From a virus (lineage: Duplodnaviria > Caudoviricetes): a DNA stretch of 64,000 nucleotides. This document shows positions 4,632 to 28,846 of the stretch, piece after piece. The notes beneath the pieces were generated by a model. It saw nothing but the letters and a program-made list of their open reading frames with translations, searched no databases and was not told the DNA's origin. The position numbers and the translations under genes were made by a program. Numbering within the stretch: position 1 is the first letter of the stretch; each line of letters begins with the position of its first letter. The stretch is taken from the IMG/VR virus record IMGVR_UViG_3300017914_002346; one strand, 5' to 3'.

Positions 4632-4845
4632 CGTAAATATCCTTTCTGCTTCTTTCGTTTAACATTGCTGCAATTTCAGCTACTGATTGGTCTTTATAAT
4701 CATGCTGAAGTTTCTGTGCTACCTGCCAGTTAGCTTCCACTGAACGTGACATAGCAATGCCTTTACCGAAAGCATCAAAAAAGTTTACGATACCTTGATA
4801 TAAATCAAGACCTAGAGTATAACCTCTGATCGCTAATTGTGTCAT
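4624..4845 (-). CDS. Hypothetical protein in hsp20 operon
   Basis: ORF with AAGGGG SD, overlapping the hsp20 3' end. Confidence 0.6.
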   Translation of the reverse strand: MTQLAIRGYTLGLDLYQGIVNFFDAFGKGIAMSRSVEANWQVAQKLQHDYKDQSVAEIAAMLNERSRKDIYGA

Positions 4846-5272
4846 TTTCTTTCCCCTTATGACTGTTAATGTTAATCAATTGGGGACGCTTTTCTTTAGG
4901 AAGGACTACTTCTAATTGAATAGCAAGAATTCCATCCATAAGATCTGCTCCGTTGACTTCTGTATACTCAGACAGCCTGAATGACTTTTTAAATTTGCGA
5001 GCTGAAATACCTTTATGAATATACTTCTCAGGCTCTCTACGACGTTCGCGTGAGCCTTCTATAGTAAGAATATTATCTTTCAACTCAATTGAAATATCAT
5101 CTTCTTTGAAACCTGCGACAGCCATTTCTAGCACATAGTTAAGCTCATCTTCTTTCACAACATTGTGAGGAGGATAAGAATCCTGTGCGTGTTTTGATAT
5201 ATTGTCTAGTTCATTGAAAATGTGATCGAAACCTAGAAAAACGTTTCTAGGAAATGCAAAGTTTCCTGTCAT
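4805..5272 (-). CDS. hsp20: Small heat shock protein Hsp20 (IbpA-like)
   Basis: SYPPHNVVK...LEMAVAGF...YIHKGISARKFKKSFRL...DGILAI. Confidence 0.95.
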   Translation of the reverse strand: MTGNFAFPRNVFLGFDHIFNELDNISKHAQDSYPPHNVVKEDELNYVLEMAVAGFKEDDISIELKDNILTIEGSRERRREPEKYIHKGISARKFKKSFRLSEYTEVNGADLMDGILAIQLEVVLPKEKRPQLININSHKGKENDTISDQRLYSRS

Positions 5273-5335: not shown

Positions 5336-5339
5336 AAAG

Positions 5340-5660
5340 AAAAGAGAAGTTTTTTCTGTTGCCAGGAAAAACCTCTCCACAAAACCCCGCTAGTTGTACT
5401 TAACTCAACTAGGCAATTGCAGCAAGAGCCTGAGCACGCGGTGAAGTAACTTCTACCTTTGTGCTAAGGATTGATGCGAAAGTAGACTTGCTTTTTGCAG
5501 TTACTTTAATTATACTAAATCTACGCATATTTTTACAACATCTGTCGATCCTATTTCGCCCCCACAAAAAGACTCTCGTCTTGAATGTTTTGGTGGAGGC
5601 GCCGGGTACCGCCCCCGGGTCCAGCCTGTTTATTCTATACGCGATCATAAATCAAGTACA
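5340..5660 (-). ncRNA. ssrA: Circularly permuted two-piece tmRNA (alphaproteobacterial type)
   Basis: Acceptor piece ends GGGGGCGGTACCCGGCGCCTCCACCA at 5591; coding piece starts GGGGGCGAAATAGGATCGAC at 5563; G3-U70 Ala pair; tag ORF 5498-5409; ends approximate. Confidence 0.92.
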
Positions 5661-5663
5661 ATA

Positions 5664-5671
5664 TATTTATA
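5664..5671 (-). promoter_or_regulatory. T4 late promoter upstream of tmRNA
   Basis: TATAAATA on the minus strand just upstream of the acceptor piece. Confidence 0.7.
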
Positions 5672-5703
5672 ATAAATAATTTAAATAAGTTATGGATTAA
5701 ATT

Positions 5704-5922
5704 ATGGCACCAAATTTTAAATTTAAAATAGTTAAGAGTTGGAACGGAGATCTTATGACTTTGGTTGACTCTGAATGGGAACACCCGATGTGGCAGAGAT
5801 CTTTCGATCAAACTATATGGAACAAATATAGAGATAGTGATTTTAACACATTTGATAGCGATTCTATAGCAGCAGATGGTTTTGATTATAAAGACTATCA
5901 TAACGATTCGTTTGAAGTGTAG
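5704..5922 (+). CDS. Small acidic protein with three DS[D/E] motifs
   Basis: 72-aa ORF directly upstream of and co-oriented with 5932..7023. Confidence 0.65.
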   Translation: MAPNFKFKIVKSWNGDLMTLVDSEWEHPMWQRSFDQTIWNKYRDSDFNTFDSDSIAADGFDYKDYHNDSFEV

Positions 5923-28602: not shown

Positions 28603-28676
28603 TGGCAGGGGCACAAAGAATTGAACTCTGTCTTACTGGGTTGGAGCCAGCCGTGCTACCGTAACACTTTACCCCT
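28603..28676 (-). tRNA. tRNA-Trp (CCA)
   Basis: AGGGGTA...CTCCAAC anticodon loop...GTTCAATT...TGCCCCTGCCA. Confidence 0.93.
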
Positions 28677-28681
28677 AAATT

Positions 28682-28768
28682 TGGTGGGCACACCCGGACT
28701 TGAACCGGGAAGACTGTATCGTCGACAGATTTTAAGTCTGTTGTGTTTACCAATTTCACCATGCGCCC
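28682..28768 (-). tRNA. tRNA-Leu (TAA)
   Basis: GGGCGCA...CTTAAAA loop, long variable arm, GTTCAAGT, CCA end. Confidence 0.95.
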
Positions 28769-28769
28769 T

Positions 28770-28846
28770 TGGTGATTCCGGGAGGATTCGAACCCCCGAC
28801 CTACTGATTAGAAGTCAGTTGCTCTATCCAGCTGAGCTACGGAACC
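28770..28846 (-). tRNA. tRNA-Arg (TCT)
   Basis: GGTTCCGTAGCTCAGCTGGATAGAGC...CTTCTAA...GTTCGAATC...CCA. Confidence 0.95.

Follow-up and report, generated by a model that had tools for sequence, protein, structure and literature searches.

Trans-translation takes place in nearly all bacteria, and the peptide tag that tmRNA adds normally hands broken proteins to ClpXP. The locus described here raises the question of whether a tmRNA carried by a phage, with a tag that has neither of the usual ends, still works, and what would become of the proteins that it tags. The window (the whole stretch of DNA that was analysed, 64,000 nucleotides) is, by its predicted genes, from an uncultured marine T4-like myophage. 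It encodes DNA polymerase, clamp, clamp loader, primase, ribonucleotide reductase, major head protein, portal and scaffold. Compared with cultured phages, the polymerase is just 41% identical and the head protein approximately 50%; the best matches are cyanomyophages. The GC content is approximately 35%. The window also contains a tRNA cluster (28603-28846, minus strand) with tRNA-Trp(CCA), tRNA-Leu(TAA) and tRNA-Arg(TCT); the same three specificities were reported for the phage Melnitz (PMC9004378).

Gene anatomy, promoter and RNA structure

Rfam covariance models matched the region twice on the minus strand: alpha_tmRNA (RF01849) at 5692-5343 along the whole model (120.9 bits, cut-off 50) and tmRNA_permuted (RF04321; 84.4 bits, cut-off 47). 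The original prediction of a two-piece tmRNA is borne out by Rfam, above both cut-offs, and not by ARAGORN, which made no tmRNA call on the 64-kb window or on the excised region, also with a lowered threshold. The gene is circularly permuted: the T-arm, the acceptor 3' strand and CCA come first, and the acceptor 5' strand and the tag frame follow, an order found in 17/17 aligned relatives. Direct reading of the strand confirmed the predicted CCA end at 5591, the 27-nt spacer, the start of the coding piece at 5563 and the acceptor pair G3-U70 (G at 5561 opposite U at 5597). Judged by its sequence, this is a complete phage-borne two-piece (permuted) alpha-type tmRNA gene (Table 1).

Table 1. Positions of the tmRNA features and of the neighbouring Hsp20 gene in the window.
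Feature	Position	Strand	Details
T4-type late promoter motif TATAAATA	5664..5671	-	Conserved GTAC, at which the RNA model begins, lies 5 nt downstream
Acceptor piece	5591..5659	-	Rfam alignment; 5' end placed from the promoter position
Acceptor-piece parts	5' tail GTAC 5659-5656, P2 3' strands, T-arm 5618-5602	-	Rfam alignment
Acceptor-piece end	3' strand CGCCUCC 5601-5595, ACCA 5594-5591	-	Rfam alignment
Intervening spacer, 27 nt	5564..5590	-	Read from sequence; extends the acceptor helix
Coding piece	5338..5563	-	Rfam alignment; 3' end placed from hairpin and U run
Coding-piece parts	Acceptor 5' strand GGGGGCG, P2 5' strands, tag frame, stop-codon hairpin, 3' hairpin with U run	-	
Tag reading frame, 29 codons	5409..5498	-	Resume GCA 5498-5496 after GTAACT; stop TAG 5411-5409
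Imperfect hairpin inside tag frame	approx. 5436..5474	-	Helices 9 and 10; apex (approx. codons 15-19) covaries
Stop-codon hairpin	5390..5412	-	CTAGTTG, loop AGTTAAGTA, CAACTAG
3' terminal hairpin, loop CCUGGCAACAG, U run	5336..5378	-	Covariation (helix 12)
Hsp20 small heat-shock protein gene	4805..5272	-	PHROG 432 at 2.5e-37; Pfam HSP20 at 1.3e-18

Two further features of the sequence overlap the gene. A 79-codon ATG ORF (5409-5648, minus strand) lies in the tag frame and covers the tRNA-like domain together with the tag; it is spurious and could enter an automatic annotation, in error, as a hypothetical protein. A sigma-70-like match (TTGTAA, 18 nt, TATAAT; 10/12) is found inside the tmRNA just before the resume codon (5509-5538, minus strand) and is probably a by-product of AT-rich sequence.

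T4-type late promoters consist of TATAAATA at about -10 with no -35 element, stand upstream of late genes and need gp55, gp33 and the sliding clamp. The motif predicted upstream of the tmRNA was found exactly as described and is comparatively well conserved: ATAAATA is invariant at a fixed distance in 17/17 aligned relatives, and where TATAAATA is intact (13/17) it starts 81-82 nt before the CCA end. The flanks upstream of the motif show no conservation in the alignment. Its count in the AT-rich window, 11 with 10.5 expected, does not by itself exceed chance. The motif is also found on the minus strand in front of neck, scaffold and three other long ORFs (the AsnB-like gene among them), at a distance of 21-27 nt from the ATG. 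Clamp and clamp-loader genes are present in the window, and a search of the window with the Melnitz protein as query gave no match for gp33. Because the motif count is at chance and gp33 was not found in the window, late timing rests on the conservation of the motif, and is what we infer from general knowledge of T4-type late promoters.

Late promoter motifs stand back to back at 5664-5678. TATAAATA on the minus strand (5671-5664) serves the tmRNA. The plus-strand motif, AATAAATA (5671-5678), precedes an ATG at 5704 by 25 nt.

The gene sits in an accessory region with PstS-like, 2OG-Fe(II) oxygenase, glycine-rich fibre-like, Hsp20 and asparagine-synthase-like genes. The Hsp20 gene has its own TATAAATA at 5335-5328, and Hsp20 is found near the tmRNA in 20/25 family loci. 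This neighbour fits a small late proteostasis module together with the tmRNA.

Secondary structure was assessed from 17 aligned copies by an RNAalifold consensus, with covariation compared with 500 shuffles and partner-slide controls. In the consensus helices 96% of the cells are paired, and sliding the partners drops this to 35-47%. Pairs that change on both sides number 28, compared with 14.4 in shuffles, and no shuffle (0/500) reaches 28. Covariation supports the T-arm, the acceptor stem, two P2 segments, the stop-codon hairpin, the 3' hairpin and a hairpin within the tag frame. In the T-stem both sides change in 2/5 pairs. The acceptor stem keeps G3.U70 in 17/17 copies and shows compensatory changes at pairs 4 and 5 (G-C, U-A, A-U; G-C to C-G); its helix (consensus helix 6) continues into the spacer. 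The stop-codon hairpin (helix 11), which has the TAG in its 5' strand, is paired in 97% of the cells, with a middle pair that is A-U, C-G or U-A. In the 3' terminal hairpin (helix 12) 6/13 pairs change on both sides. This hairpin with its U run is likely the transcript end; its loop is too long for it to be picked up by a simple terminator scan. With a transcript running from about GTAC to this hairpin and U run, the spacer alone would be left to remove.

The hairpin inside the tag frame was unexpected. At its apex (helix 10) 5/7 pairs are compensatory on both sides in relatives, so the variable middle of the peptide is shaped at least partly by RNA structure. By this comparison, RNA structure and peptide sequence are constrained together within a tmRNA reading frame.

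Pseudoknot PK1, a normal part of tmRNAs, is absent: at its site the alignment has a 19-nt gap relative to the Rfam model, and the resume codon follows the last P2 pairing after only 13 nt. PK1 is also lacking in several other viral alpha-type tmRNAs. The predicted transcript start GUAC pairs with GUA(C/U) just before the resume codon, with an A-U replacement in one lineage. According to this model, an extension of P2 by the 5' tail would take the place of PK1.

One structural element of the original prediction was rejected. It had proposed a 14-bp pairing between the two pieces, from the 5' tail to the sequence after the stop codon. The complementarity is perfect in the window alone (14/14), falling to 6-11/14 in relatives. 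Across the family 64.7% of the cells are paired, compared with 63.8% in shuffles, with no covariation, and the 3' arm overlaps the conserved, covarying stop-codon hairpin, with which it would compete. The helix was discarded because of this lack of conservation and the clash with the hairpin.

The 29-residue tag across the family

The predicted frame was recovered unchanged. It encodes a peptide with the N-terminal part AKSKSTFASIL, the middle STKVEVTSPR and the C-terminal part AQALAAIA, and a net charge of +3. Pattern scans found the same tmRNA gene in 25 further loci (9 IMG/VR and 16 metagenome contigs), whose lineages are just 71% identical overall. When the gene was compared by blastn with 50,697 phage records, nothing matched apart from two short stretches in the tRNA-like domain. 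A metagenome scan for the N-terminal pattern of the tag returned loci of this tmRNA family exclusively, and most of the fetched metagenome stretches also carry phage Hsp20 or AsnB neighbours. One exact pattern (tag ending plus downstream box), run against 185,579 species genomes, gave nine hits, all of them chance matches outside tmRNA genes. On the evidence of these two scans the tag does not appear to copy a known host tag.

The frame is exactly 29 codons long in 26/26 copies (the window and the 25 loci) and there are no indels. These copies comprise 12 distinct nucleotide versions of the ORF and 10 peptide variants, and the stop codon alternates between TAG and TAA. The start AK-(R/S/K)-K-S-T-F-A-S-I-(L/F) and the end A-(Q/E/K)-A-L-A-A-(I/S)-A are near-invariant, and the ten residues between them vary. 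All 26 loci combine a start AK-x-K with an end Ile-Ala or Ser-Ala, and the typical ANDN start with an Ala-Ala end is found in none. In codons 26-28 (Ala-Ala-Ile) only third positions change (GCT/GCA; GCA/GCT/GCG; ATT/ATC/ATA), except in the L007 lineage, which has a Ser codon at tag position 28. Pairwise pN/pS is 0.50 in the tag frame and 0.91 and 1.05 in the other two frames, both of which contain stops. By section, it is lowest in codons 22-29 (0.21), with 0.46 in codons 1-11 and 0.67 in the middle. The resume context GTAA(C/A)T-GC(A/T)-AAA is invariant in the family and aligns with the resume site of the Rfam model. ARAGORN, run on the L007 sister lineage, called the same resume codon and a 29-aa tag.

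Taken on this homology of the resume context, the ARAGORN call on the sister lineage and the codon-type substitutions, the 29-residue tag is very probably real. The N-terminal codons could owe much of their conservation to an RNA-level constraint, namely selection on the resume site. The substitution pattern indicates purifying selection on the tag, above all on its C-terminus, so something probably still reads it.

The latter point bears on the alternative that only ribosome release is needed, and that the tag has lost its function and drifted, with fragments neither specifically degraded nor spared. In some coliphages tmRNA charging and ribosome release matter and the degradation signal does not, and here the middle ten residues of the tag vary freely. 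However, the changes in the last eight codons are almost all synonymous, as the low pN/pS there reflects, and a length fixed in every locus is not a pattern of drift. Rescue without a meaningful tag is on balance doubtful.

It is improbable that the true resume codon lies further downstream in the frame, for example at the GCT of codon 22, which would give an 8-residue tag and leave the upstream 21 codons as structural RNA. The covarying hairpin, formed by about codons 8-27, and the weaker coding signal in codons 1-21 would suit such an arrangement, but the invariant upstream context is the one that aligns with the resume site of the model, and ARAGORN chooses the same upstream codon in the sister lineage. 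The sequence GTAACT-GCA-AA also precedes the canonical ANDN tag in other viral tmRNAs (e.g. L009 and L023), and neither a stop nor an indel is found over 87 nt despite the low overall identity.

A decoy RNA that titrates host SmpB or AlaRS, and so blocks host trans-translation, would need none of the conserved tag frame, stop-codon hairpin, resume context or coding-type substitutions. This makes it very unlikely, even with PK1 missing and with the precedent of mycobacteriophage DS6A, whose tmRNA is reduced to the tRNA-like domain and was reported to resemble an inhibitory molecule (PMC4131195). Least credible of all is a host ssrA fragment left by imprecise prophage excision and unused by the phage: integration at ssrA is common and prophages can contain pieces of it (PMC9004378, PMC4131195), but this gene is complete, shows covariation among divergent contigs of lytic T4-like phages, is preceded by a conserved phage promoter motif of its own and carries a tag ending that the single exact pattern matched in none of the species genomes' tmRNA genes.

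A separate observation concerns proteins encoded near the tmRNA. Large proteins (approximately 390-660 aa) that are otherwise unrelated have in common the N-terminus MP-(L/F)-x-F-(A/S/T)-R-S-(I/V)-L-(A/T)-G-G. Their genes are found in the window (4377, minus strand; 5932 and 8759, plus strand) and in L042, L044, L046, L064, L068 and L070, and in several relatives they cluster directly around the tmRNA. Loose motif matches of the tag segment T-F-A-S-I-L are rare: 31,162 aa contain 4, of which 3 lie within 1.6 kb. Mimicry by this segment of the fibre-like N-termini MP-L-A-F-A-R-S-I/V-L was considered and is probably a coincidence, as F-A aligns with canonical ANDNFA, the match needs a gap and the motif was picked post hoc.

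Comparison with phage and bacterial tmRNAs

Two-piece tmRNAs in phages are already known. Buchholz et al. (2022) described one in Melnitz, a phage of OM43 (Methylophilales), together with 53 two-piece tmRNAs in phage isolates and permuted tmRNAs in 17/47 related contigs (PMC9004378). In tmRNA database papers, phage tmRNAs number just a few dozen (PMC4131195, PMC11915505), and a pelagimyophage survey does not mention tmRNA (PMC7029224). Since alpha-type two-piece tmRNAs of marine myophages have been published (PMC9004378), the novelty implied by the original prediction was overstated. Tags like the one in the window are not mentioned in the text or supplements of PMC9004378, and a description of this tag variant was not found in the literature.

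Melnitz and the window share an alpha-type permuted tmRNA in a marine T4-like myophage, matches to the same Rfam models and a TATAAATA just upstream of the acceptor piece. An early promoter was assigned to the Melnitz tmRNA by its authors (PMC9004378). The Melnitz tag is canonical, ANDNYVPVDYALAA, unlike that of the window. Melnitz has a glutamine riboswitch after the tmRNA, whereas Rfam found none in the window, and the DNA similarity between the two is too low for blastn. Melnitz and related pelagimyophage contigs also resemble the window family in having a variable spacer between the pieces, which sometimes holds small ORFs.

In relatives of the window the spacers range from 30 to 202 nt, and those of at least 107 nt that were read carry small ORFs. 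These spacers of 107-202 nt have ORFs with Shine-Dalgarno-like sites. Loci with spacer ORFs are L058:65-513, L070:2413-2884, L043:11200-11634, L042:1602-2028, L066:11211-11727, L072:3040-3470 and, for Melnitz, L057:11070-11225. A recurring ORF type ends ...QHRVH-x-x-K/Q-Y/F-E/D-D-L-C-K/M and another begins MFKLIKNWFEKW. The L066 spacer holds a 62-codon ORF, and in L072 and Melnitz the spacer ORF extends into the coding piece. The spacers of the window (27 nt) and the L007 group (30 nt) have no ORF.

Caulobacter-type RF01849 tmRNAs share with the window the gene order, T-arm, acceptor stem with G3-U70, P2 and resume context, as well as a stop codon inside a hairpin and a 3' CCUGGCAACAGAA hairpin. 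Unlike these bacterial genes, the gene in the window is without PK1, an ANDN start and an Ala-Ala end, and it is carried by a phage with a phage promoter. Its RF01849 score is 121 bits, compared with 160-313 bits for bacterial genes.

Other alpha-type tmRNAs from the IMG/VR scan have ANDN...AA tags of 13-14 aa, with two exceptions. The first is a set of 11 contigs (L005, L006, L011, L013, L021, L022, L025, L026, L033, L035 and L036) with a 29-aa tag that has a canonical ANDN start and ALAA end. Long tags therefore arose more than once in marine viral tmRNAs. The second is a single contig with a 24-aa tag.

A bacterial baseline was prepared from 151 alphaproteobacterial genomes, in which small genomes are over-represented by choice, and 92 tmRNA loci were read. 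A tmRNA match was found in 148/151 genomes (the unpublished G043 is counted in this tally only). ARAGORN reported 73 tags with a median length of 12 aa; 12/73 are at least 20 aa and 4/73 at least 29 aa long. An AN start is found in 63 of them and an AK start in 6, and 13 are net basic. Alphaproteobacterial tags had been characterised beforehand as short and acidic, with the form AND(N)...AA. The Ala-Ala end holds in 71/73, so that another ending, as in the window, is rare (2/73). Shortness and acidity do not hold as generally: the long and basic tags in this sample mean that the length and charge of the phage tag are not unprecedented.

The long basic alphaproteobacterial tags are 21-33 aa with net charges of +6 to +9 (L108, L114, L129, L140, L151 and L154), and the genomes that carry them (G010, G022, G068, G112, G143 and G152) are mostly small, 0.5-1.7 Mb. 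Some tags of small-genome Alphaproteobacteria start with AK like the tag in the window. In contrast to the latter, nearly all long basic tags end in Ala-Ala and they are chromosomal; none is similar to it in sequence. AT-rich alphaproteobacterial genomes of approximately 1.1 Mb, possibly SAR11-like, have canonical ANDN...AA tags. In one very AT-rich 1.1-Mb genome (L138, G109:C23:31873-32506) the two-piece tmRNA has a spacer of approximately 440 nt, within which lies a large internal direct repeat.

What sets the phage family apart, as far as these sequences indicate, is the conserved non-Ala-Ala ending together with the lost ANDN start. The tag looks like a modified canonical skeleton (A-x-x-x...F-A...A-L-A-A) in which the start is basic, a hairpin-coding stretch is inserted and a cap is added, and it appears to have been derived from the canonical alphaproteobacterial tag. 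The acidic ANDN start appears to have been replaced by the basic AK-x-K start. Approximately 13-15 codons appear to have been added mid-tag, about ten of them forming the RNA hairpin, and the ALAA end appears to have been extended by Ile/Ser-Ala, a two-residue cap.

Outside the Alphaproteobacteria, Mycoplasma/Mesoplasma have a long ssrA tag of 27 aa that is read by Lon, in an organism lacking ClpXP (PMC8403727; PMC10695633). Both this tag and the 29-aa tag in the window are unusually long and depart from the ClpX type; the length is shared and the sequences are dissimilar. It is the precedent known for a long tag moved to another protease.

Proposed function and fate of tagged proteins

The reading preferred here, at a probability of roughly 0.7, is that the gene, from a lytic marine T4-like myophage, encodes an alpha-type two-piece tmRNA that is functional and used for ribosome rescue. 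We infer its processing, charging and timing and the fate of the tagged proteins as follows. One precursor, from approximately 5659 to approximately 5338, would be transcribed from the T4-type late promoter. Host tRNA-end enzymes (host RNase P and 3' trimming) would remove the 27-nt spacer, and the two pieces would be held together by the acceptor stem and P2. Host AlaRS would charge the RNA through G3-U70. Delivery to ribosomes stalled on broken mRNAs would be by SmpB of the host, which is assumed because no SmpB was found in the 64-kb window, itself part of the phage genome, or in the fetched parts of the family loci. Translation would resume at GCA (5498) and add the 29-residue tag. What the phage mainly gains is probably additional capacity for ribosome rescue late in infection, and the tag is most likely still read by a protease or adaptor, with altered specificity.

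In E. coli, SspB recognises the beginning of the tag, and ClpX the terminal Leu-Ala-Ala carboxylate. Going by the predicted peptide, both of these ends are changed in the phage tag. The original prediction had proposed a changed fate for tagged proteins, which would be either spared or routed to another protease, and this is plausible. A stronger form is that this is a private trans-translation tag, which would escape host SspB and ClpXP and be read by another host protease or a phage factor. The escape is suggested by the loss of the ANDN start and the capping of the Ala-Ala end by Ile/Ser-Ala, but this form of the idea is tentative and rather unlikely. If it is true, the phage rather than the host would decide the fate of truncated proteins late in infection.

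For annotation, the locus is an example of a tmRNA gene that is missed by ARAGORN and whose tag frame surfaces as a spurious ORF. The system also bears on whether a trans helix can replace PK1. With one RNA and one 29-residue peptide, it would be a compact setting for asking how the sequence of a tag sets the choice of protease. A widespread lineage of marine phages appears to have its own tmRNA with a late promoter motif, beside Hsp20, and with both recognition ends of the tag rewritten. This suggests that phages may tune not only ribosome rescue but also the later fate of the rescued products.
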